Assembly: GCA_021204165.1 (NCBI GenBank)
Contig: JAJPZU010000112.1
Location: forward strand, 1-11,574
DNA from: Prevotellaceae bacterium
Lineage (GTDB): Bacteria; Bacteroidota; Bacteroidia; Bacteroidales; Bacteroidaceae
Direction of reading: 5' to 3'
DNA: 11,574 nt
The position numbers and the translations under genes are program-made. This document shows positions 11 through 11,164 of the stretch, one piece after another. A model generated the notes under the pieces. The model was not told the DNA's origin. It saw nothing but the letters and a program-made list of their open reading frames with translations, and made no database searches. Position 1 is the stretch's first letter, and each line of letters starts with the position of its first letter.

Positions 11-135
11 AGGTGGCGCGTAGCGACGGAGGAGTCTGTCGAAAACACCCACCAACTACACACGAGGAGTCTGCTGAAAACATCCCGCTAAATATACATG
101 AGTAGTCTGTAAATACACTCACTTAAACAAGAAGC
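11..135. repeat. Left terminal inverted-repeat arm. Core TIR 11..46 matches the reverse complement of 11538..11574 (36/37 with a single 1-nt indel). Three sub-terminal motif copies GAGGAGTCTG at 29..38, 64..73 and 100..109 (third is GAGTAGTCTG), spaced 35-36 bp.
   Basis: Direct alignment of positions 11..46 (aggtggcgcgtagcgacggaggagtctgtcgaaaac) with the reverse complement of 11538..11574 (aggtggcgcggtagcgacggaggagtctgtcgaaaac). Extended units share the consensus ACACATGAGGAGTCTGYYGARAACAYCCC. Confidence 0.85.
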
Positions 136-226
136 ATAATATTCCCACACGGAAACAGAGGGAAAAGAATCAGGGACACCATCACGATGCCCCTGAAAAA
201 CACAATGATTTCCGACAAGTCATACA

Positions 227-2192: not shown

Positions 2193-2308
2193 TATAATCG
2201 TTTTTTAGTTTAAGTTCTGCCTGCACATCGTTCATGCGGCTTCAAAATTCCACGAAACCGGACACCATGCGGGCGGCAGGCAGATGGTTGTGCAATCTTA
2301 TCGTACCA

Positions 2309-3835
2309 TTATACTCTCAACACACCCTTCTGCAATCCGAATGTTCTCCAGCGATTGATGGCGGACTGTCCCTGTTTGCATTCAGCCGCCCCACCGGTAT
2401 TTTCCTCCAGATTCATAAGGTAGTCTATGTAGGCGGCAATCACCGCCATCTCTTCGCTCTCGTTCTTGAATCCCGGACGCGGACGCAGACGCTCCGCATT
2501 GCGCTCTATAAAATAGGTGTTGTAGTTTCCTTCACGGAAATCAGGCACATCAATGATGCGGCGCAAGTAGCGTATGTTCGTAGTCAGACCGACAATCTTA
2601 TATTCATACAGCACTCTCCTCATGCGCTCAATGGCATACTGTCTCTCCGTAGCCCAAACGATAAGCTTTCCAATCATCGGATCGTAATGTACGGGAATCT
2701 CATAGCCCTCATATACATAGCTGTCGATTCGGATACCAATGCCGTGAGGCTCTGTGAGCTGAACAATCGTTCCCGGCGAAGGCATGAAGTTATGCTCCGT
2801 ATCCTCCGCACAGATGCGGCACTCTATGGCATGTCCTCTTTGGCGGATATCCTCCTGACGGTAGCCCAGCGGTTGTCCGTCAGCAATAAGAATCTGCTGT
2901 TTCACAAGATCGACGCCGACAACTTCTTCCGTGATAGGATGCTCCACCTGAAGCCGGGTGTTCATTTCAAGGAAATAGAAATGATGGTGCTTATCCACAA
3001 GAAACTCAATGGTGCCGGCACCGATGTAGCCCACCGCTTTTGCCGCAGCCACCGCCTTCTCGCCCATTTCGCGGCGAAGAGTGTCATCAATAAACGGCGA
3101 CGGACTTTCTTCTACTATTTTCTGGTGACGACGCTGCACAGAACATTCGCGGTCGTAAAGATGGATGACATTGCCATGCTTGTCGCCAAGTATCTGAAAC
3201 TCTATGTGGTGAGGCTCCTCGACAAACTTTTCGATATAGACTGTATCATCGCCAAACGAAGCCATCGCCTCGTTCTTTGCCGCATTGTACATCTCTATCA
3301 CATCTTCTTCGCGTTCAATAAGTCTCATGCCTTTTCCGCCGCCACCCATAGAAGCCTTCAGCATCACGGGGAAGCCAATCTTTCGGCACACCTCCAAGGC
3401 TTCCTCGCCACTGCTCAATTGCTCCTGAGTTCCGGGCACAACGGGCACTCCCGCCTTTATCATCTGTATGCGGGCGGAAATCTTGTCGCCCATCAATTCC
3501 ATGGTTTCCGGCTTTGGACCGATGAAGATGATGCCTTCAGCTTCACAACGACGCGCAAACTCGGAATTTTCGGAAAGGAAACCGTATCCCGGGTGAATGG
3601 CATCCACTTTGTGCTTCTTTGCCGCCTCGATAATGTGGTCGATATTCAGGTAGCTGTCTGCCGACGACGCACCGCCGATACACTCTGCTTCGTTTGCAAA
3701 AACGACATGGCGCGACAGACGGTCGGCAGTGCTATAGACAGCCACAGAACGTATGCCCATTTCATAACAAGCACGCATCACCCGAATCGCAATCTCACCG
3801 CGATTGGCAACCAATACTTTTCTTATCATAAACAT
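2309..3835 (-). CDS. accC: Biotin carboxylase (ATP-grasp), acetyl/propionyl-CoA carboxylase biotin carboxylase subunit, 508 aa
   Basis: N-terminus VLVANRGEIAIRV, glycine-rich ATP loop MGGGGKGMRLI, and the signature EMNTRLQVEHPITE. Full-length. Confidence 0.93.
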   Translation of the reverse strand: MFMIRKVLVANRGEIAIRVMRACYEMGIRSVAVYSTADRLSRHVVFANEAECIGGASSADSYLNIDHIIEAAKKHKVDAIHPGYGFLSENSEFARRCEAEGIIFIGPKPETMELMGDKISARIQMIKAGVPVVPGTQEQLSSGEEALEVCRKIGFPVMLKASMGGGGKGMRLIEREEDVIEMYNAAKNEAMASFGDDTVYIEKFVEEPHHIEFQILGDKHGNVIHLYDRECSVQRRHQKIVEESPSPFIDDTLRREMGEKAVAAAKAVGYIGAGTIEFLVDKHHHFYFLEMNTRLQVEHPITEEVVGVDLVKQQILIADGQPLGYRQEDIRQRGHAIECRICAEDTEHNFMPSPGTIVQLTEPHGIGIRIDSYVYEGYEIPVHYDPMIGKLIVWATERQYAIERMRRVLYEYKIVGLTTNIRYLRRIIDVPDFREGNYNTYFIERNAERLRPRPGFKNESEEMAVIAAYIDYLMNLEENTGGAAECKQGQSAINRWRTFGLQKGVLRV

Positions 3836-4431
3836 CTATATTTGGTTATACACTTTCTTCCATCTCAAAACAAAATATAATACGATATCAGAAAGCACAC
3901 TCCGAGAACCGCATGACAAAGCGGACAACTCACGAAAGAATACATATCCCAAGAATACATGAATACACAAAAAACACCGATATTCCATCCCGGAATCTCA
4001 GCAAAACAGTATTCTCAGTATTTTTCCGGCAGCTCTTATTCCCGAGAGCGGCATCTGAACATCGGCATCGGCAGGTCTTCTGACTTCTCCATTGGCAGCA
4101 CGGCCTTCCCAACCACAATTATTTACAGCCTCACGGCAATAACAAAGGTCAGTGGCACAACATGATGATGTGTTGCCATAAAAAACAGGAGTTACAGCTA
4201 CGGGTATAGTTACAGACTCACACTGTATTCCCTCTTAGTCTGTCCGTCTTTCCTGAGTGCTTCTTCCTGAAGTCCGCCATTCCCGAAATCAGATTAGGCA
4301 AATTCCAGTCTCAACAAGCCTCAAATGAAGAGGACAAGAACCAAATGCGCGGCAAAAGTACACATAAAATCCGAATCCATGCACTTTTTACCATATTTTT
4401 ACTCCAAACATTCTATGAAACTCTTGTGTTT

Positions 4432-4578: not shown

Positions 4579-5955
4579 TCAGTCTTCTACTTCTTCCGCA
4601 TCCACAGCAGGCTCTTCTTTTTTCTTCGCCAGATACTCCGGCAAATTAAGCCCCGCCATATCGAAAAGTTCGTTAAGCGGCGGAACAGACTTCATCAGTC
4701 CGGACACGAAACCGGCTGTAGAGCCTTTTCCGTCTGCACCACCGGCACCATTGTCCCAAACAGTCACATGGTCAATGTTGATACCCTTGACAGCCTCAAC
4801 CTGAGTCTTGACAAGCTCAGGAAGCTTTTCGAGCAGCAACAGCATGTATGCCTTGTTGGCATCTCCTCCGGCAGCCTGAACCATCTTGTCATAACCGGCA
4901 GCCTGCTTCGTCAGCACTTCATACAAACCTTTTGCTTCTGCCTCCATCTTGGCATAAATGGCATCTGCTTCACCCTTTGCATTGACACGCACGCGCTCTG
5001 CTTCCGCCTCCGCTTCGATGATAAGTCGTCTCTTCTCAATCTCCTGCGGAACGAGTACGTTGGCTGTTTCCGTAGAGCGTTCACGTTCTGCACGCGCTTC
5101 CTCAGCCTCGCGTTCTGCCGCGTATGCTTCCTGCAATGCCTTTGCCTGCTGTACTTTTTCTGAGGCTGTGGCTTTACGCTGTGCCTCCGCTTCCTTCTCA
5201 CGGCGATAAGCCTCGGATGCAGCAATGGCAACCTTCGCTTCGTTCTCACCCTTTACGGCTTCCGCATTGGCTTCGGCTGTACGTATGCGGGTTTCTCTCA
5301 CCGCTTCCGCCTTACCGATTTCACCGACTTTATCTTGCTCTGCCACTCTCACTTTTGCCTCATTTATCGCTTTGGCAGCAGCTTCACGTCCGAGAGCCTC
5401 TATATATCCGCTCTCATCTTTTATATCGGTCACGTTCACATTTATCAGACGAAGACCAATCTTTTTCAGTTCCACTTCTACATTGGCAGAAATGCTCTCA
5501 AGAAACTTGTCACGGTCGTTGTTCAGTTCCTCAATACTCATCGTGGCAATTACCAGACGCAACTGTCCGAAAAGAATATCACGCGCCAGTTCCTGTATCT
5601 GTGCAGCACTAAGTCCGAGCAAACGTTCCGCAGCTGCATTCATGCAATCGTGGTCTGTAGATATACCCACAGTGAAGCGGCTTGGCACATCCACACGGAT
5701 GTTCTGTTTGCTGAGCGCATTTGTCAGATTCGCATCAATACTGATTGGTGTAAGGCTAAGATAAGCATAGTCTTCGATTATAGGCCATACGAAAGCACCG
5801 CCGCCATGCACGCAACGTGCCGACGTTTTGCTGCTTTTACTCCCATAAATCACCAAAATTTTGTCCGAAGGACACCGTCTGTAACGATTCACAATGGAAA
5901 CGAACAGCGCAATAGCCACTACAGCGGCAATTACAATAAGATACATAGATTCCAT
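4579..5955 (-). CDS. Flotillin-family SPFH/band-7 domain protein (YqiK/FloT-like), 458 aa
   Basis: N-terminal TM helix (YLIVIAAVVAIALFVSIV), then an SPFH domain, then a long Glu/Ala-rich coiled coil (AEQDKVGEIGKAEAVRETRIRTAEANAEAV...EAEAQRKA...EAEAEAERVRV). Sits downstream of an NfeD-like gene, the canonical yqiJ-yqiK / nfeD-floT arrangement. Confidence 0.88.
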   Translation of the reverse strand: MESMYLIVIAAVVAIALFVSIVNRYRRCPSDKILVIYGSKSSKTSARCVHGGGAFVWPIIEDYAYLSLTPISIDANLTNALSKQNIRVDVPSRFTVGISTDHDCMNAAAERLLGLSAAQIQELARDILFGQLRLVIATMSIEELNNDRDKFLESISANVEVELKKIGLRLINVNVTDIKDESGYIEALGREAAAKAINEAKVRVAEQDKVGEIGKAEAVRETRIRTAEANAEAVKGENEAKVAIAASEAYRREKEAEAQRKATASEKVQQAKALQEAYAAEREAEEARAERERSTETANVLVPQEIEKRRLIIEAEAEAERVRVNAKGEADAIYAKMEAEAKGLYEVLTKQAAGYDKMVQAAGGDANKAYMLLLLEKLPELVKTQVEAVKGINIDHVTVWDNGAGGADGKGSTAGFVSGLMKSVPPLNELFDMAGLNLPEYLAKKKEEPAVDAEEVED

Positions 5956-6050: not shown

Positions 6051-6140
6051 TGGTCAAAAATTCTCATCCCTTTGGGTCAAAATTTTCATTCCTTTAGTCA
6101 AAAAAATCTCATCCCTTTGGGTCAAAGATTCTCTACCACC
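6051..6140. repeat. Four tandem ~22-23 bp direct repeats, consensus GGGTCAAAAATTCTCATCCCTTT
   Basis: Units at 6051..6073, 6074..6095, 6096..6118 and 6119..6140 (tggtcaaaaattctcatcccttt / gggtcaaaattttcattccttt / agtcaaaaaaatctcatcccttt / gggtcaaagattctctaccacc). The last unit overlaps the final codons and stop of the NfeD gene. The array fills the nfeD-flotillin intergenic space. Confidence 0.8.
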
Positions 6141-6700
6141 AGCATTTCTCCGCCGACAACATCAGTAATCCGCACCTTGCGCCCTGTGGTTATCGCCTCA
6201 CCCTCTGTAACCGCATCCAGTTCATGCACGGAACCGTTCACACTTATCTGCACTTTTCCTCTGCCGCTCTTCTTCTCCGGAATGCGCAGATAGACATCTG
6301 CCACACGTCCCTTGCAATATTCAATGCGGAAGGCGCCGTTTGCCTCCAGCTTCTTGGTCTGCTTGTAGATAAAGAAGAACATCCACACAAAAAACAAGCC
6401 TACGGCTGCTGCCACGAGTGCCAGCAACACAGCATTACCCATCAGCGAATGCAGACAGACACCTGCCCAGCCGAAGCCCACAAAGAAATTGACAAGGCTC
6501 CTTATAGAGAACAACGACAGTCCTCCTCCCAAATCCATTGTGTCTCCGGCATCAAAATCGACATCTATGTCGCTTGAATCCATTCCGAACAACGTAAGCA
6601 GAAGCTGTATTACAAACACAGCTGACCCGACAAGTGCACAAACCCAGAACACTTGCTGCATAGTTTCAAGTCCACTGAACCAAATTGAAAAACTCTCCAT
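6122..6700 (-). CDS. NfeD-family membrane protein (YqiJ-like partner of flotillin), 192 aa
   Basis: Several N-terminal TM helices, a short acidic loop (DSSDIDVDFDAGD) and a C-terminal OB-fold/beta-barrel segment (KGRVADVYLRIPEKKSGRGKVQISVNGSVHELDAV...VRITDVVGGEMLVVENL) typical of NfeD. Immediately upstream of the flotillin gene. Confidence 0.8.
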   Translation of the reverse strand: MESFSIWFSGLETMQQVFWVCALVGSAVFVIQLLLTLFGMDSSDIDVDFDAGDTMDLGGGLSLFSIRSLVNFFVGFGWAGVCLHSLMGNAVLLALVAAAVGLFFVWMFFFIYKQTKKLEANGAFRIEYCKGRVADVYLRIPEKKSGRGKVQISVNGSVHELDAVTEGEAITTGRKVRITDVVGGEMLVVENL

Positions 6701-6899
6701 ATTCTAATTAGTTTTACGGTTATATAAATCATATTCTGAAATGATATGTCCACCATCTATTTTACAAAGAGGGAACATCCTTAAAAAAAATAACATTACC
6801 AGACTGCATTTTTCATTAAACACTCTCCTTCTCACTGCATTTTCATAATTCATAAAAGACTCCGATTAATTATTTTAATGATAAATGCCAATCTTATAA

Positions 6900-7580
6900 T
6901 TACCATACATATTGCGATGGATATTTTACTTGCATGAAAGTGAAGCCATGCCCCATTACGCTATGGTGAGAAGTCGTCTGTGCTGTCATATTTGATACAA
7001 TACTGCCAAACACCTGCATATTTGCTCTTGCGTCACCGCGTGAAGCAAGAATGGGTGCATCAGGGACATCGTAATCGCGCCATGCAAATAAGCAGACCTT
7101 TTGGGGATATGTCAAGAGATTTACAGCTGTTGTAGATTCTTGAATCAAAACTTCTATCGATTTAAGCATTTGCTGTCTGGCTTTTGCCCGTTTCCCTTCC
7201 GGGTATTTTCCCGTATTAGGCTCAACATATTTTTCCTCATAACAACACAAGTCACAGAATACAACTTTTTCATGTACCATTCCTGTCTCTGTCATTAATA
7301 AATCACATCGGTCTTTAATATTGGCAGTAGTGCCTGCAAATTGTTCGATATACTTTTCAAAACGAACCACAGCAATTTCCTTGCCATTATTATTCACCTT
7401 CAGAACTTCTTTATTGCATTCATTACGGTAAGCCCTTTCAGGCAATTGCTGACATCGTATGCAACTCTTGGAGTCGGTTTCTGAGAAAGGTTCGCGTATT
7501 CTGTAGAGAGGCACTTCTACTTCTTGTGGATTTATGCCATAATGGAGCGGGAATGCCTTTTTAAGAAAAGATTCTATCAT
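6900..7580 (-). CDS. Uncharacterised 226-aa protein with a Cys cluster (CxxC...CxxCC), translationally coupled partner of the upstream AAA ATPase. Candidate effector of a two-gene defence module.
   Basis: Start ATG overlaps the ATPase stop (ATGA at 7577..7580). Residues CIRC (40-43) and FCDLCCY (~112-118) could form a Zn-ribbon. No family recognised from sequence alone. Confidence 0.55.
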   Translation of the reverse strand: MIESFLKKAFPLHYGINPQEVEVPLYRIREPFSETDSKSCIRCQQLPERAYRNECNKEVLKVNNNGKEIAVVRFEKYIEQFAGTTANIKDRCDLLMTETGMVHEKVVFCDLCCYEEKYVEPNTGKYPEGKRAKARQQMLKSIEVLIQESTTAVNLLTYPQKVCLFAWRDYDVPDAPILASRGDARANMQVFGSIVSNMTAQTTSHHSVMGHGFTFMQVKYPSQYVW

Positions 7581-8737
7581 ACGTCAAGATTTACAAATTC
7601 ATTATAAATGTGACTCATCAACTCTGAGAGGTCGTAAGTATCTACAATCCACCGTCCGCGTTCATTTTGGACAAGCAAATCTTGTATCTCTCCTTCATAT
7701 ATTCGATAAACAGCCGTGTTAGTCCTGCTCAATTGGGCACGTACTGCATTTGTTTGGTTTAGTAAAACATTCAAGTAGTTAAGAATATACGGACTATGGG
7801 TCGCAAGCATCATATTAATTTCTCGATTTTCATCCGCATGTGTTGCCGACAGCACAATTTCTTCTATGAGTTTGCACTGTGCATCAGGGAACAGACTTAA
7901 CTCAGGTTCTTCAATATGGATATATACTTGTTTCTTCAAATCGCTGGGTTCTGCGACAGCCCGAAACTTGTTCAATCTTTCCATATCATACAGATAGTTC
8001 AGGACAGAGCGCTTGAATGCGTCCTTAAATGAAAAGCCATTTGCGCTGGCATAGTTCTTTACAATCAAAGCGACCGATGCTGACGTTTGAATGCCGGATG
8101 AAGCTTCTCGTAAGTCGATTGGCTCATGACGGCTGTCATTTGGAATGACGGTGTAGCGTGTAGGCTTACCTTTGGGGTGGGTTATCTGAAGCTTCATGCC
8201 TATATAGTCCAACGGTATCTCTTTGTCGTTTGCCGATGCTCTGACAAAATCATTGTTTGTTTCATGAAAATAAAATCCCAAGGTTGCACCTGTGTTTTGG
8301 GATGCCTTTTGCGCCCATGTCGGAATGATGTTTCGGTTTTCAGAGATATAGGACACTTTGTTGAACACCAAATGGTCAGAAGATATAATGGGAAGTCTGC
8401 CTAATTTCTTGTTTTCCATCAAGATGGTGTATTCCGTTTCATCATCCATGACTACACTATACCTAATTACACTTGACGAGTCAAGCATTTTATACATTCC
8501 CGTTTCTTTCATCATCGAATCGAAGCGCATCCTGAAAGGAGAGCTTGTTATTTTTGAATGCTTCAAATAAGAACGGATGTTTGCCATTTTGTACAGATAG
8601 CGCATCATGCTTATCAGCTTCATCAGTGTGCTTTTACCACTTGCGGATTCACCAATCAACACAGTGAATGGCAGAAGGCCAAGGTTCTCAATGTGCTTTA
8701 GCGGACCAATATTTTTAATTGTTATAAATTCCTTCAT
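7577..8737 (-). CDS. AAA_15/AAA_21-family ABC-type (SMC-like) ATPase, about 386 aa. The six-frame ORF extends to 8815, but the conserved N-terminus begins at Met-27 (MKEFITIKNIGPLKHIENL).
   Basis: N-terminal M-x-x-I-x-IKNxxxxxxxxxLxxxxxxxVLIGxNxSGKST architecture with Walker A GESASGKST. Walker B/D-loop VYIHIEEPELSLFPDAQ and H-loop MLATHSPYIL. This family supplies the ATPase of Septu (PtuA), OLD/Gabija N-domains, RloA-like and several Abi systems. The region is visibly more AT-rich than its neighbours. Confidence 0.8.
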   Translation of the reverse strand: MKEFITIKNIGPLKHIENLGLLPFTVLIGESASGKSTLMKLISMMRYLYKMANIRSYLKHSKITSSPFRMRFDSMMKETGMYKMLDSSSVIRYSVVMDDETEYTILMENKKLGRLPIISSDHLVFNKVSYISENRNIIPTWAQKASQNTGATLGFYFHETNNDFVRASANDKEIPLDYIGMKLQITHPKGKPTRYTVIPNDSRHEPIDLREASSGIQTSASVALIVKNYASANGFSFKDAFKRSVLNYLYDMERLNKFRAVAEPSDLKKQVYIHIEEPELSLFPDAQCKLIEEIVLSATHADENREINMMLATHSPYILNYLNVLLNQTNAVRAQLSRTNTAVYRIYEGEIQDLLVQNERGRWIVDTYDLSELMSHIYNEFVNLDV

Positions 8738-8956
8738 AATAAAGTTTTGTTTTTCAAACAATCTGATAAAGTATGATTTACCCAATAAAGATACTAATTT
8801 GTACTTCAACAGCAAAAAAAATCCTGTATTGTGACGCTAAAAACGTGAATTTATTACAGAAATGGCACTTTGTCATGTCAAATCAGAAGGTGAAGTGTCA
8901 AAACAGGAGATACAATCCAAACTTATTGTTGCATGAACATCTGGGGCCAGAGCCGC

Positions 8957-9478
8957 CTAATCCTCCAGCCAGTCCTCCGACAAACTGAAGTCCTTGTCCG
9001 CAAACAAGTCCGCCAGCCCGGAAATCTGCTTCAGCCTCAACAGCTCATCCTTGTCCATGCCGATATTGCGCATAATCCACGCATCCGACATGCCCGCAGA
9101 CGTAAGCTCCGACACGATGTGGCTCATCAGCTCTATCGTGTGCGTACCCCTCGCCCTGTTATGACGTATGGTCGAAGCCATTCTGCACGAAATATCCTTG
9201 TCTATCACCGACACGGGAAGCATCCCCTTCTCCCTGTCATAAATTCGTTTCGATGTCTTCATCACCAGATAGCGGTGGAATCCATCTACAATCTCATACT
9301 TGTCCTCGTCCTTCAAGTAATAGCACACGCAAGGCATGGTGTACCCGTCCTCCCATATCGACAGTTCCAACAGCTTCATCTCCGGAGGAGCCACCATGTT
9401 GGGGTTATAATTGTTCGCCACCACTTTCTCGATAGGCACTGCTATCACATTATATACCGGACTCTTAAAATTTTCCAT
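8957..9478 (-). CDS. IbrB-like ParB/Srx-fold (ParB N-terminal nuclease-like, DGxHR) protein, 173 aa
   Basis: ParB-domain motifs VANNYNPN and EIVDGFHR. Overlaps the upstream PAPS-reductase-like gene by 14 nt. The gene pair matches E. coli ibrA-ibrB / ybdN-ybdM and is analogous to DndC-DndB. Confidence 0.8.
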   Translation of the reverse strand: MENFKSPVYNVIAVPIEKVVANNYNPNMVAPPEMKLLELSIWEDGYTMPCVCYYLKDEDKYEIVDGFHRYLVMKTSKRIYDREKGMLPVSVIDKDISCRMASTIRHNRARGTHTIELMSHIVSELTSAGMSDAWIMRNIGMDKDELLRLKQISGLADLFADKDFSLSEDWLED

Positions 9479-10763
9479 ATTCCAATGCTTTATATTTTCT
9501 CATCACACTTTCTCGTCTGCTCTTCTCATTCTTGGTCAGGGTAAAGCCCATGTACTTACACACATGGTCGTTTCTCAGTATGCAGATGCAGACACGCTTG
9601 AATGTCGGAATCTCCCGAAACTCCGGAATGTCTATGTCGTCAACGTACTCCATCATGACCGGTCTTTTGTTAGTGCGGTATGCCGTGGTCGTCCCAACCG
9701 TAAACTTCACCCCTGCCGCACGCAATTTTTCAATGGTCTCATCGCTCAGACATCCGCCTTTCGTCCTCCAGAATCTCATGCTCACACCTATCTTGTCCAG
9801 ATAATTGCGGCACACCTTCTCCGGCAACGTGTCCAGCAGAAAGTACATGTACTTTTTCCAAGAAAATCCGTGAGGACATTTTATCGACTTCCATCCCATA
9901 GCCGTCGTATTCCCGTAGATGCCGGAAAAATTGACACCATTGACACGGCTGACCATCCGCCCCCACATGTCGGGGTCTATCGCCCGATAGACACTCAGCG
10001 TAGGTATGGCATGAGAAATGAACGGACTTGCCACCCGCTGCCGCCCAATCGGAATGCCCGCACGCGAATAAAGGTCATAAAGCGGATTATAAGTCCATCC
10101 GAATTTTCCGTTTGCCGTCCAGATGTCAGATGTTTTCCAGTCATAAAGCGGATAAGCGTTATACACATGTGCAGCAAGCTTATGTGTCCATTTGTAATGC
10201 GAAAGCCGCCGGTAGTTCTTGGCATTGTGTATGGCCGTCCACCGGTTAAAACTCTCCTGCGTCCTTATGCCTACAAGACAACATATACGTTCACATTTCT
10301 TCCGGTTGCGCAGCCAAGGGGCGAAAAGATACTGGAAGTCATAGTCCCACAAGGCATCAGTGAAGAAATTGAAATCGGCTGCCGTATAAGCCCCCTCAGG
10401 CATTTCCCTCACCCATATATCCTTCTCCGATTCTCCCCAAGGTCTCCAATACGACTGGTGCATGGATGTACAGGTCATGACTTTGAAGGGCACGCAACAA
10501 TGGTACACCTCCAGAATGTCGCGATTCTCCGACAGGGTACGGCGCACATACTCCGTGGTCTGCCGGTACTGCACCTCGTAGTCCATGTGGAACACACCCA
10601 GCTTACGTCCCGGAGCATACCTCCGTATATAGTCTATGCACAGATTCAACAACACTCCGCTGTCCTTGCCACCCGAAAACGAGACATACACATAATCGAA
10701 ATAATCGAATATGATCTTCAGCCTCCTTTGCACTGCTTCATAAACATCAAGTTGCCTAATCAT
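9465..10763 (-). CDS. IbrA-like phosphoadenosine-phosphosulfate-reductase-family PP-loop ATP pyrophosphatase with a long C-terminal (DUF3440-like) extension, 432 aa
   Basis: N-terminal PP-loop SFSGGKDS (VYVSFSGGKDSGVLLNL) characteristic of the PAPS reductase/DndC/YbdN family. Its size and the overlapping ParB-like downstream gene match the IbrA/IbrB pairing. Confidence 0.8.
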   Translation of the reverse strand: MIRQLDVYEAVQRRLKIIFDYFDYVYVSFSGGKDSGVLLNLCIDYIRRYAPGRKLGVFHMDYEVQYRQTTEYVRRTLSENRDILEVYHCCVPFKVMTCTSMHQSYWRPWGESEKDIWVREMPEGAYTAADFNFFTDALWDYDFQYLFAPWLRNRKKCERICCLVGIRTQESFNRWTAIHNAKNYRRLSHYKWTHKLAAHVYNAYPLYDWKTSDIWTANGKFGWTYNPLYDLYSRAGIPIGRQRVASPFISHAIPTLSVYRAIDPDMWGRMVSRVNGVNFSGIYGNTTAMGWKSIKCPHGFSWKKYMYFLLDTLPEKVCRNYLDKIGVSMRFWRTKGGCLSDETIEKLRAAGVKFTVGTTTAYRTNKRPVMMEYVDDIDIPEFREIPTFKRVCICILRNDHVCKYMGFTLTKNEKSRRESVMRKYKALEYGKF

Positions 10764-11164
10764 TCCTTACGTCCTCCGGCATATACCATCTTGTCATAAT
10801 TCTTCCATTCCCTATGTGTCCTGAAGCCGTTGCGTGCAAAGTCAGCCACATGACGCTTGTGTACGACTGCGGTCAGCACAGTCCTGCTCACCGACTCCGC
10901 CACCACCCTGTCGAGCAGAGCATCAATGAGCAAAGAATCGTCGCCCTTGATATAATAATTGTCAATACAGGCTTCACGCTCTTTCTCCTTTACCGGAATG
11001 AATCCGATTACCTCCTTTTTCTCTATGGCCACATACCATTTGTGATGACGGGAGGTCTTGAAGGGATAATTGTTGTTGAGCCTCAACACTGCCGCATTCA
11101 TCACCAGCGGTGCCACCAGCTCATAAAGGCGGGAAGATGTGCCTTCTAAAATCTCAATATTCAT
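10760..11164 (-). CDS. Small hypothetical protein (134 aa), possibly a minimal GNAT-fold acetyltransferase. First gene of the IbrAB-like operon.
   Basis: Stop overlaps the IbrA-like start (ATGA at 10760..10763). The C-terminal segment HVADFARNGFR resembles GNAT motif B (N..A..fY.k.GF). No clear acetyl-CoA P-loop, so the fold assignment is weak. Confidence 0.45.
   Translation of the reverse strand: MNIEILEGTSSRLYELVAPLVMNAAVLRLNNNYPFKTSRHHKWYVAIEKKEVIGFIPVKEKEREACIDNYYIKGDDSLLIDALLDRVVAESVSRTVLTAVVHKRHVADFARNGFRTHREWKNYDKMVYAGGRKE

Follow-up and report, generated by a model that had tools for sequence, protein, structure and literature searches.

The closest catalogued relative of the gene pair described here appears, from sequence comparison, to be PDC-M29, itself only a PADLOC 'phage defence candidate' (PDC) (Payne et al., 2024; bioRxiv 10.1101/2024.01.29.577857). 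The criterion that defines PDCs is guilt-by-embedding in BREX, DISARM or restriction-modification (RM) operons (bioRxiv 10.1101/2024.01.29.577857). HEC-02, by comparison, is a validated system that joins an ABC ATPase to a NERD PD-(D/E)xK nuclease (bioRxiv 10.1101/2024.01.29.577857). In PARIS (AriA + AriB), OLD and Gabija, an ABC ATPase scaffold controls a nuclease whose effector domain is TOPRIM (DUF4435), separate in PARIS and fused in OLD/GajA, with a further helicase, GajB, in Gabija, and Septu is a two-gene operon of an AAA_15/21-type ABC ATPase (PtuA) and an HNH nuclease (PtuB) of ~200-250 aa. Here, we analyzed a two-gene locus with these general features in an 11,574-nt contig of a Prevotellaceae bacterium (JAJPZU010000112.1), referred to below as the window. 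A literature search returned no paper that names the family of this pair or PDC-M29, and no experiment on either.

Locus Organization and Composition

Two ORFs were confirmed on the minus strand of the window, one for an ABC ATPase and one for a 226-aa, Cys-rich partner (Table 1). A first-pass annotation, made from the sequence alone, had assigned positions 6900-8815 to the pair. Its two overlapping minus-strand genes stand, but the ATPase gene ends at 8737 and not at 8815. The longer limit corresponds to a mechanical ORF (7577..8815) of 412 aa with a TTG start, whereas translation almost certainly begins with the ATG at 8737 (MKEFITIKNIGPL...), judging from homologue lengths of 383-387 aa and from the 386-aa product assigned by gene callers on an identical contig (L012). 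The ATPase-stop/partner-start junction reads GTATGATAG; the proposed overlap was thus located as an ATGA, by which the two genes are translationally coupled. A 49-aa ORF between the partner and NfeD (6707-6853) was rejected as a third gene, since it is 51% conserved in a same-species contig (L040) vs. 90-97% for real proteins, and it is probably non-coding by this measure; no third conserved gene was found in homologous loci. Scanning the locus for sigma-70 promoters and terminators gave background levels only, Bacteroidetes promoters being outside the coverage of the tool.

The GC content of the pair (0.405; GC3 0.35/0.44) relative to the eight other genes of the window (0.47-0.52; GC3 0.47-0.71) agrees with the earlier impression of a pair more AT-rich than its flanks. 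The upstream leader, previously put at ~25% GC, measured 33.8%, and the very AT-rich stretch is instead the downstream spacer. Homology to the region upstream of NfeD in related species resumes at or below 6795, a point that may approximate the boundary of the accessory segment. The pair is carried by the same-species contig L040. In the two nearest species, the contigs (L041 and L042) extend 0.66-1.3 kb beyond NfeD on its upstream side and lack the pair there; they do not cover the other junction. No direct or inverted repeats beyond chance flank the pair. Between two samples of the window species, amino acid identity is 90% for the partner and 95% for the ATPase, and the sequences of both genes appear intact and evidently under purifying selection.

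Table 1. Features of the gene pair in the window, with their positions and the observations on which each assignment is based.
Feature	Position	Strand	Basis
ABC-type (AAA_15/AAA_21) ATPase gene, PDC-M29A-like, 386 aa	7577..8737	-	Pfam and PADLOC matches, homologue length
Partner gene, 226 aa, Cys-rich, predicted PD-(D/E)xK-fold nuclease, undescribed family	6900..7580	-	
ATGA stop/start overlap, ATPase/partner	7577..7580	-	Same 4-bp overlap in L001-L012
AT-rich 5' leader of the pair, with its presumed promoter	8738..8956	-	33.8% GC
AT-rich 3' spacer downstream of partner	6701..6899	-	26.6% GC
ATPase Walker A/P-loop GESASGKST (Lys35), residues 29-37	8627..8653	-	G29, G34, K35, S36 invariant in alignment A4
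ATPase ABC signature-like REASSGIQ (S213-S214-G215-x-Q217; contains SSGIQ)	8087..8110	-	S213, S214, G215, Q217 invariant in A4
ATPase Walker B/D-loop VYIHIEEPELSLFP	7886..7927	-	E276-E277-P278-E279-L280-S281-L282 invariant in A4
ATPase H-loop LATHSPY	7787..7807	-	H314, S315, P316, Y317 invariant in A4
Partner D36-S-K-S-C40-I-R-C43: invariant Asp36 and first Cys ligand(s) of putative metal site	7452..7475	-	D36 122/122, C40 119/122, C43 98/122
Partner E-C55-N-K-E: second conserved Cys	7407..7421	-	C55 118/122
Partner helix F-E75-KYIEQF: putative alpha1 Glu of nuclease core	7338..7361	-	Position 75 = E 92/122, D 28/122; model helix 74-79
Partner R-C92-D93-LLM: beta-strand start, putative 'PD' Asp and adjacent Cys	7293..7310	-	C92 119/122, D93 121/122; model strand 94-98
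Partner K105-VVF-C109-D110-L-C112-C113-Y: next strand, putative '(D/E)xK' site, Lys replaced	7239..7268	-	Model strand 105-113
Partner G-K130-RAKARQ-Q137-M: helix N-terminus, candidate relocated catalytic Lys	7167..7196	-	K130 122/122, Q137 121/122; model helix 130-146

The ATPase

By its Pfam matches to AAA_21 (3.7e-14, 53.9 bits, cut-off 27) and AAA_15 (2.5e-12, 47.5 bits, cut-off 32.1), the larger protein is an ABC-type ATPase of the AAA_15/AAA_21 group, as had been recognized earlier from its GESASGKST, Walker B and ATHSPY motifs, which we located. The Walker B/D-loop stretch at 7886-7927 reads IHIEEPELSLFP, and REASSGIQ is presumably the C-loop. PDC-M29A gave the best match of 79 PADLOC models (2.1e-26), aligning residues 31-365 with profile positions 4-337 of 410; it is also the top defense model for every ATPase of the family, with relatives reaching 5e-60 (L034). 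AriA was the second-best PADLOC family (3.3e-14), and for Septu, PARIS, Gabija and AbiL the models cover no more than short motif stretches of the protein. A single-sequence search of the PDB gave no matches. With the ATPase profile, PDB matches were at the level of motifs only; the best was OLD 6p74 (1.9e-06), which, together with AriA 8ux9, falls on the Walker B/D-loop segment.

The Partner Protein

Searches of Pfam, PADLOC and NCBIfam with the partner gave no HNH, TOPRIM, DUF4435 or RloB match, nor any other, so only half of the locus is detected by the PADLOC models tested. Profiles built from the partner (A1 and A2) returned only noise from PDB sequences (DnaA, ADAMTS-5; E > 0.3), and no sequence profile was found that links the window partner directly to any nuclease family. 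Comparison of the partner model with nuclease structures gave a weak likeness (Z <= 6.0, Foldseek E 0.012), and the structures closest to its core were the McrC, Shedu SduA and Card1-Can2 nuclease domains (PD-(D/E)xK), over ~100-130 aligned residues. Pfam SduA_C is matched by a few relatives of the partner. A restriction-endonuclease-like (PD-(D/E)xK) fold is thus predicted by the model, in an effector family without earlier description that we define here as ~340 sequence clusters. This outcome fits the first-pass view that the partner is not a canonical HNH protein and may be a different or novel effector; its suggested TOPRIM, DUF4435 and RloB families were covered by the same searches.

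Residue conservation was counted over 122 sequences with a mean column identity of 23%. Acidic residues occupy position 75 in 120 sequences, position 93 (Asp) in 121 and position 110 in all 122, the last divided between Asp (62) and Glu (60), and R168 is invariant or nearly so. Position 112 is T, S, Y or C across the alignment and never K. The Cys residues of the window partner include C40xxC43 and C109-D-L-C112-C113 motifs; C113 is found in 118 of the 122 sequences, and C40, C55 and C113 are lost jointly in three (P0349, P0361 and P0362). Nucleases of the Cas4/AddB type have one Cys before the nuclease core, a CxxCx5C-like triad after it, and a RecB-like QxxxY motif. An iron-sulfur 'staple' nuclease of this type was considered for the partner and rejected, as C40, C55, C92 and C113 lie before or inside the core with no C-terminal triad. 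The RecB-like motif was likewise rejected: Q137 is conserved, but there is no conserved Y four residues on.

Distribution and Neighborhoods of Homologues

The pair is present in 26 of 185,579 species representatives, scattered over Bacteroidales families at varied and unrelated positions. In 30/30 loci compared, the gene that directly precedes the partner encodes an ATPase homologue, down to 25% partner identity, with the 4-bp overlap at every locus for which there are gene calls; the pairing is far beyond chance. Three of these loci look decayed (L031, L033 and L034), and the partner in L034 is 35% identical to that of the window. AT-rich, sporadic and variable in location, the pair is consistent with horizontal acquisition, as was suggested at the outset, and by these sequence characteristics the gut Bacteroidales bacterium of the window carries in it a cassette of two genes that is horizontally mobile.

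At four loci from MAGs (L014, L015, L016 and L036), the pair sits between Type III Mod (MTase_III, 5e-213) and Res (REase_III, 7e-208) genes, on the same strand with gaps of 6-13 bp, and downstream of a DrmD-like helicase (7.7e-204). Such embedding in Type III operons provides independent support for candidacy as a defense system. Identity of Mod and Res is 65-74% within L014-L016 and 46-47% against L036, and the four loci may descend from one or two ancestral events. The other 26 loci, window included, have no adjacent Mod/Res. Direct neighbors elsewhere include PDC-M56, PDC-S02, PDC-S27, Type I MTase or HNH genes; a canonical PDC-M29A (1e-104) shares an operon with the pair in L015, and DDE transposases adjoin it in L001 and L008. 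Most neighborhoods outside the window consist of housekeeping or polysaccharide genes, and in the window itself no recognized defense system adjoins the pair. A link to the neighboring IbrA/IbrB-like operon was rejected, as that operon is missing from all other pair-bearing loci.

Discussion

Similarly to PDC-M29, the pair forms a two-gene cassette in which an ABC ATPase is followed by a small protein, the PDC-M29A match is near full-length, and relatives of the pair, unlike the window copy, are embedded in RM operons. In contrast, the window ATPase is ~25% identical to canonical PDC-M29A, and the window partner has no PDC-M29B match even at E 0.1. Among the 122 partner relatives, PDC-M29B is matched weakly by 22 (best 1.1e-8) and PDC-M47B by 4, the PDC-M29B matches being limited to the central core of this 164-position profile. 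The B gene beside canonical PDC-M29A in L015 likewise has no PDC-M29B match, and an hhalign comparison of A2 with this 200-aa protein was not significant (probability 0.3). The same non-significant alignment sets D...E-F-K...Q against D93...D/E110...Q137, which is a hint only.

The resemblance to HEC-02 lies in an ABC ATPase with a separate, here predicted, nuclease of the PD-(D/E)xK superfamily, and in a logic that would be alike. However, the HEC-02A match is short and confined to residues 293-365 (1.4e-10), the partner matches neither HEC-02B nor NERD, and the Cys4 signature and missing canonical Lys are specific to the family of the window pair. Membership of Septu was rejected, because the PtuA model covers residues 295-344 only (4e-08; ~50 residues, Walker B/H-loop) and the partner has neither an HNH motif nor a PtuB match, with a restriction-endonuclease-like fold predicted instead. 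PARIS, OLD and Gabija were rejected as well, given that neither protein has a TOPRIM, DUF4435 or helicase match and that the ATPase has only 386 aa, as was AbiL, for which the AbiLi match is partial (1.2e-09) and an AbiLii match to the partner is lacking. What had been called a Septu-/Abi-like defense candidate keeps its candidacy, with the Mod/Res embedding as added support, and is not a member of Septu. Nor did we find what the first-pass annotation had regarded as grounds against a defense role, namely metabolic homology of the partner and core-genome status of the pair. Judged by sequence, the pair would be a divergent variant of the ABC-ATPase and nuclease defense theme.

We consider that the pair is probably a defense against phages or mobile elements, one of the 'ABC ATPase sensor + nuclease effector' kind, and it is in this setting that we infer nuclease activity, metal binding, a complex of the two proteins, a trigger and a defense phenotype. 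By analogy with PARIS, Septu, Gabija and HEC-02, the ATPase, a member of the PDC-M29A clade, probably oligomerizes and binds the partner, and ATP binding or hydrolysis probably keeps the latter inactive as long as no infection cue is perceived. The partner would be the effector, a metal-dependent nuclease with a restriction-endonuclease (PD-(D/E)xK-like) fold and a putative active site of Glu75, Asp93, Asp/Glu110 and the helix of the invariant Lys130/Gln137, although the (D/E)xK site lacks its canonical Lys and K130 is a mere candidate for a relocated one. Four conserved Cys residues, C40, C55, C92 and C113, are the probable ligands of a metal, structural or regulatory, beside the catalytic strands. 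Once activated, the partner would cleave nucleic acid of the phage or the cell, and the infection would be aborted.

A more elaborate version, which we regard as rather unlikely when all of its parts are taken jointly, is that the partner represents a new branch of the restriction-endonuclease fold with its catalytic Lys moved to the next helix, and that the Cys4 site (Zn or Fe-S), with ligands on either side of the two catalytic strands, is structural or a redox- or ATPase-controlled switch. The pair would then be a 'restriction guard' that is fired when a phage anti-restriction protein disables the Type III RM system around it, like PrrC and PARIS, and that later became an autonomous mobile cassette in gut Bacteroidales.

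Another theory is that the pair is a selfish addiction (toxin-antitoxin-like) module with a nuclease toxin and an ATPase antidote, kept by post-segregational killing. This would suit a compact, overlapping and sporadic operon with adjoining DDE transposases (L001 and L008) and decayed copies (L031 and L033), as well as the Pfam label of AAA_21, 'putative AbiEii toxin, Type IV TA system'. However, plasmids, phages and viral contigs are where addiction modules are common, and the partner family was not found in PLSDB plasmids, GenBank phages or IMG/VR viral contigs, the broader alignment A2 having proved too divergent for scanning by pattern; the pair is also repeatedly embedded within restriction operons. 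We judge this theory unlikely, and it is partly a matter of semantics, because toxin-antitoxin function and abortive-infection defense are not mutually exclusive.

It is also conceivable, albeit improbable to us, that the pair serves Type III-like restriction or DISARM-like systems as an accessory or guard subunit, and that the window copy is an orphan that either depends on an RM system encoded at another genomic site or does not work. PrrC, for instance, is a back-up for EcoprrI and is fired upon inhibition of the RM enzyme. The triggering of embedded ABC ATPases by anti-restriction proteins likewise has a precedent that has been discussed (bioRxiv 10.1101/2024.01.29.577857). The precise same-strand placement between Mod and Res in four MAGs agrees with such a role, as does the divergence of Mod and Res between L014 and L036 (46-47%), which parallels that of the pair. 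Against this, 26 of the 30 loci lack adjacent Mod/Res, and the intact, selected genes of the window species argue for autonomous function.

The partner could instead lack catalytic activity, its restriction-endonuclease fold having degenerated into a metal-stapled (Cys4) adaptor or DNA-binding module, with the ATPase acting through another effector or by binding alone. We find this quite improbable, since K130, Q137, R168 and the acidic character of positions 75, 93 and 110 are invariant or almost so, a pattern typical of an active site and not of a scaffold. Finally, ABC ATPases with nuclease partners also work in repair and weak Rad50 profile matches fall within the Walker A region, but a housekeeping pair of the core genome for DNA repair or recombination (RecF-, SbcCD- or RecN-like ABC ATPase plus nuclease) is very improbable and already largely refuted by the scattered presence in 26 of 185,579 species representatives at unrelated positions, the atypical composition, the absence just upstream of NfeD in the nearest relatives, and best model matches that are all defense ATPases.

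Gut Bacteroidales are under heavy phage pressure and, to our knowledge, few of their defense systems have been tested. The cassette is invisible to current annotation, and the present analysis yields a family definition, a predicted fold, candidate residues for catalysis and metal binding, and natural cases of embedding in Type III restriction operons. The pair also offers a direct test case of whether PADLOC 'guilt-by-embedding' candidates of the PDC-M29 kind are real defenses. Validation would bring a further type of effector into the large ABC-ATPase defense superfamily and might provide a compact ATP-gated nuclease.

Results

The first-pass annotation had proposed two ORFs, and both are real: they lie on the minus strand, and the ATPase stop overlaps the partner start as ATGA at 7577-7580. 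The ATPase ORF had been listed at 7577-8815 (412 aa) from a TTG; its existence stands, and the start is moved to the ATG at 8737 (MKEFITIKNIGPL..., 386 aa), in agreement with homologues of 383-387 aa and with the gene call on L012, an identical public contig. The pair, judged by eye to be AT-rich, had a GC content of 0.405 (GC3 0.35 and 0.44) vs. 0.47-0.515 (GC3 0.47-0.71) in the eight other genes of the window. The upstream leader (8738-8956), put at about 25% GC, measured 33.8%; the very AT-rich spacer is the 3′ one (6701-6899, 26.6%). Public gene callers place a 49-aa ORF between partner and NfeD (6707-6853, minus strand); it is 51% conserved in L040, a second sample of the window species, vs. 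90-97% for real proteins, and is probably non-coding spacer.

Features of the window, ATPase motifs and predicted elements of the partner
Feature	Location	Strand	Remarks
Acyl-CoA carboxylase operon, carboxyltransferase	227-1681	minus	
Acyl-CoA carboxylase operon, BCCP	1674-2192	minus	
Acyl-CoA carboxylase operon, biotin carboxylase	2309-3835	minus	
Cobalamin riboswitch	4053-4296	minus	Rfam RF00174, 71.6 bits, E 2e-16, full-length
Flotillin/Band_7 gene	4579-5955	minus	
NfeD-like gene	6122-6700	minus	
Inverted repeat arms	6806-6820 and 6874-6888		between partner and NfeD
ParB_N-like gene	8957-9478	minus	173 aa, IbrB-like
PAPS-reductase/DUF3440 gene	9465-10763	minus	IbrA-like; weak PADLOC matches BrxP (4.7e-7), DndC
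Small GNAT-like gene	10760-11164	minus	134 aa
Antisense shadow ORFs	2234-3880, 620-1804, 9411-10799	plus	548, 394, 462 aa; opposite genuine minus-strand genes
Walker A	ATPase, K35		GESASGKST
Signature-like motif	ATPase		S213-S214-G215-x-Q217
Walker B/D-loop	ATPase		IHIEEPELSLFP
H-loop	ATPase		ATHSPY
Helix	partner model 74-79		carries E75
Strand	partner model 94-98		C92-D93 just before
Strand	partner model 105-113		carries D110, C113
Helix	partner model 130-146		carries K130, Q137
Strand	partner model 160-168		ends in R168

The AAA_15/AAA_21 identity of the ATPase was borne out by Pfam matches above gathering scores (AAA_21, 3.7e-14; AAA_15, 2.5e-12) and by four motifs that do not vary among 32 relatives, some of which are 27-44% identical. 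Among 79 PADLOC-DB models matched, PDC-M29A ranked first (2.1e-26, 334/410 profile positions), as it did for all ATPases of the family (8e-25 to 5e-60), and by sequence the window ATPase falls in the PDC-M29A clade. Lower matches (1e-14 to 1e-7) were AriA, NsnB, ATPase-TOPRIM, HEC-01A, HEC-02A, AbiLi and PtuA; most lower-ranked models span short motif-bearing segments, and AriA, HEC-02A and PtuA lie around the Walker B/H-loop only. NCBIfam gave sub-threshold matches only, and no close solved structure was found, OLD 6p74 (1.9e-06) and AriA (0.03) being motif-level matches.

The partner had no match in Pfam, PADLOC or NCBIfam. A word-indexed search returned 98 full-length relatives (34-90% identity) that carry no Pfam domain, and an exhaustive profile search returned 341 clusters at 50% identity (215 with E <=1e-10); members are nearly all standalone proteins of 200-235 aa, and across loci the ATPase is consistently the better conserved of the two. 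Across 122 aligned divergent members, with column identity averaging 23%, D36 and K130 were invariant (122/122), followed by D93 and Q137 (121/122 each), C40 and C92 (119/122 each), and C55, C113 and R168 (118/122 each); position 75 was E in 92 and D in 28, and position 110 D in 62 and E in 60. Position 112, the Lys site of a canonical (D/E)xK motif, was occupied by T, S, Y or C, with K in no member. The four members without C113 also lacked C55, and three of these lacked C40; given this shared loss, we read the cysteines as forming one putative metal site, which may hold Zn or an Fe-S cluster. Their arrangement does not follow the cysteine pattern of Cas4/AddB. Matches to Pfam SduA_C (3/122 members, best 3.9e-05), PDC-M29B (22/122, best 1.1e-8) and PDC-M47B (4/122) fall on the central core and form weak bridges at the sequence level.

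AlphaFold2 modeled the partner with a pLDDT of 82.5 from a shallow alignment and 93.1 (pTM 0.89) from a deep one. The predicted order of elements fits a restriction-endonuclease core plus extra N- and C-terminal elements. The structural matches of the model are strikingly enriched for nuclease domains of the PD-(D/E)xK type, many of them belonging to defence systems; match scores are low, so the assignment is to a fold class and not to a family. Together with the empty family searches, this element order agrees with the earlier suggestion of an effector other than HNH.

When 185,579 species were scanned, each represented by a single genome, the partner turned up at just 26 loci, so the pair is not part of a conserved core genome. 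Nearly all were Bacteroidales MAGs (Prevotellaceae, Muribaculaceae, Bacteroidaceae, Alistipes, Porphyromonadaceae), with a few Clostridia bins. By tblastn, an ATPase homologue lay directly upstream at every locus, down to 25-27% partner and 39-43% ATPase identity; gene calls at four diverse partner homologues in unrelated neighbourhoods placed an AAA_15/21 ATPase of 384-386 aa right upstream of the partner, the two genes overlapping by 4 bp. The surroundings of the pair differ widely: DDE transposases adjoin it in L001 and L008, as does recF in L008; bipA and an HU gene flank it in L005; and in L011 and L019 it sits among nucleoside-transporter, ftsX and queA genes. Further settings include polysaccharide loci and sites next to TonB receptors. 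The window's arrangement recurs in L040, at 89-92% nucleotide identity. Two further species, the closest after it, have an NfeD 85% and 76% identical and retain flotillin-acc synteny; their homology to the window ends at ~6795, and the 0.66-1.3 kb left on each contig encodes no ATPase, partner or ParB-like gene. Variable neighbourhoods, distribution, this absence and composition together support horizontal acquisition, as had been surmised from base composition. The contigs of the two related species (L041:1-762, L042:1-1286) both end 0.7-1.3 kb or less upstream of NfeD, where the sequence looks non-coding; this chromosomal position may thus hold a repeat or be variable. Searches of phage, plasmid and viral-contig collections turned up no copy of the pair, and no flanking repeats were seen around the pair.

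In three loci the pair looks decayed or truncated: in L031 and L033 the partner match starts only at residue 74 or 100, and in L034 the partner ORF is lengthened to 276 aa beside an ATPase nearer canonical PDC-M29A (5e-60). These copies suggest turnover and a continuum between the pair's family and PDC-M29.

Directly upstream of the ATPase, the genes at 8957-11164 (minus strand) form an overlapping operon of normal GC, perhaps a DNA-modification or phage-related module; its linkage to the pair recurs at no other pair-bearing locus. The cobalamin riboswitch sits in the 5′ leader of the acyl-CoA carboxylase operon; it is unusual for such an operon to be under B12 control, which may be connected with propionate/methylmalonyl-CoA metabolism. 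The long plus-strand shadow ORFs are mechanical artefacts that could mislead naive ORF picking.

Discussion

The strongest evidence for a defence role is the setting of the pair in four relatives (L014, L015, L016, L036; partners 46-67% identical to the window's). There, it lies on the same strand between genes for a Type III Mod methyltransferase (~1015 aa; PADLOC MTase_III, 5e-213) and a Res restriction subunit (~1080 aa; REase_III, 7e-208), with gaps of 6-13 bp; L014-L016 also have a DrmD-like SNF2 helicase upstream (7.7e-204). This is the situation of the "guilt-by-embedding" approach, which nominated 145 phage defence candidates, PDC-M29 (cassette FAM_00005>>FAM_02872) among them (Payne et al., bioRxiv 10.1101/2024.01.29.577857). 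The L015 operon (31-11893, plus strand), from a horse-faeces Bacteroidales MAG, contains two different ABC-ATPase cassettes: canonical PDC-M29A (1e-104) together with a 200-aa partner of its own, which shows a D...EFK...Q pattern, between helicase and Mod, and the pair studied here. One restriction operon thus hosts two paralogous cassettes. In the other 26 loci the majority of neighbours are housekeeping genes, though PDC-M56A/B, PDC-S02, PDC-S27, a Type I methyltransferase, a PD-DExK protein and an HNH endonuclease also occur as direct neighbours.

The pair is a translationally coupled ABC ATPase and protein of predicted restriction-endonuclease fold, mobile, sporadic and found in restriction operons of relatives; in the partner, both a putative active site and a Cys cluster are conserved. 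By analogy with PARIS, Septu, Gabija and HEC-02, an ATPase oligomer would bind the nuclease and keep it in check; a phage cue, perhaps an anti-restriction protein given the embedding in restriction operons, would shift the ATPase state and license the nuclease, which would cleave phage or host nucleic acid and stop infection. It is improbable that the pair is a pure addiction module, and just as improbable that it is an RM-dependent accessory, as the Mod/Res loci might suggest, orphaned in the window. A non-catalytic partner seems slightly less probable again, and a housekeeping repair pair is essentially excluded by the distribution.

This candidate nuclease cassette resembles Septu, PARIS, OLD, Gabija, AbiL and HEC-02 in architecture and belongs to none of them. 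The Septu-like reading does not hold as membership, since there is no HNH and PtuA matches are partial in the PADLOC comparison; the pair lacks the TOPRIM of PARIS, OLD and Gabija, and has no match to NERD, the PD-(D/E)xK nuclease that accompanies the ABC ATPase of HEC-02 (bioRxiv 10.1101/2024.01.29.577857). Relative to PDC-M29B/M47B, the window partner is a distant, longer, cysteine-bearing relative, and the PADLOC models miss it. The ABC-ATPase-plus-nuclease theme is already familiar and would not greatly surprise a specialist; the effector family is uncharacterised, and its putative displaced Lys and putative Cys4 site at the predicted catalytic strands are unusual.
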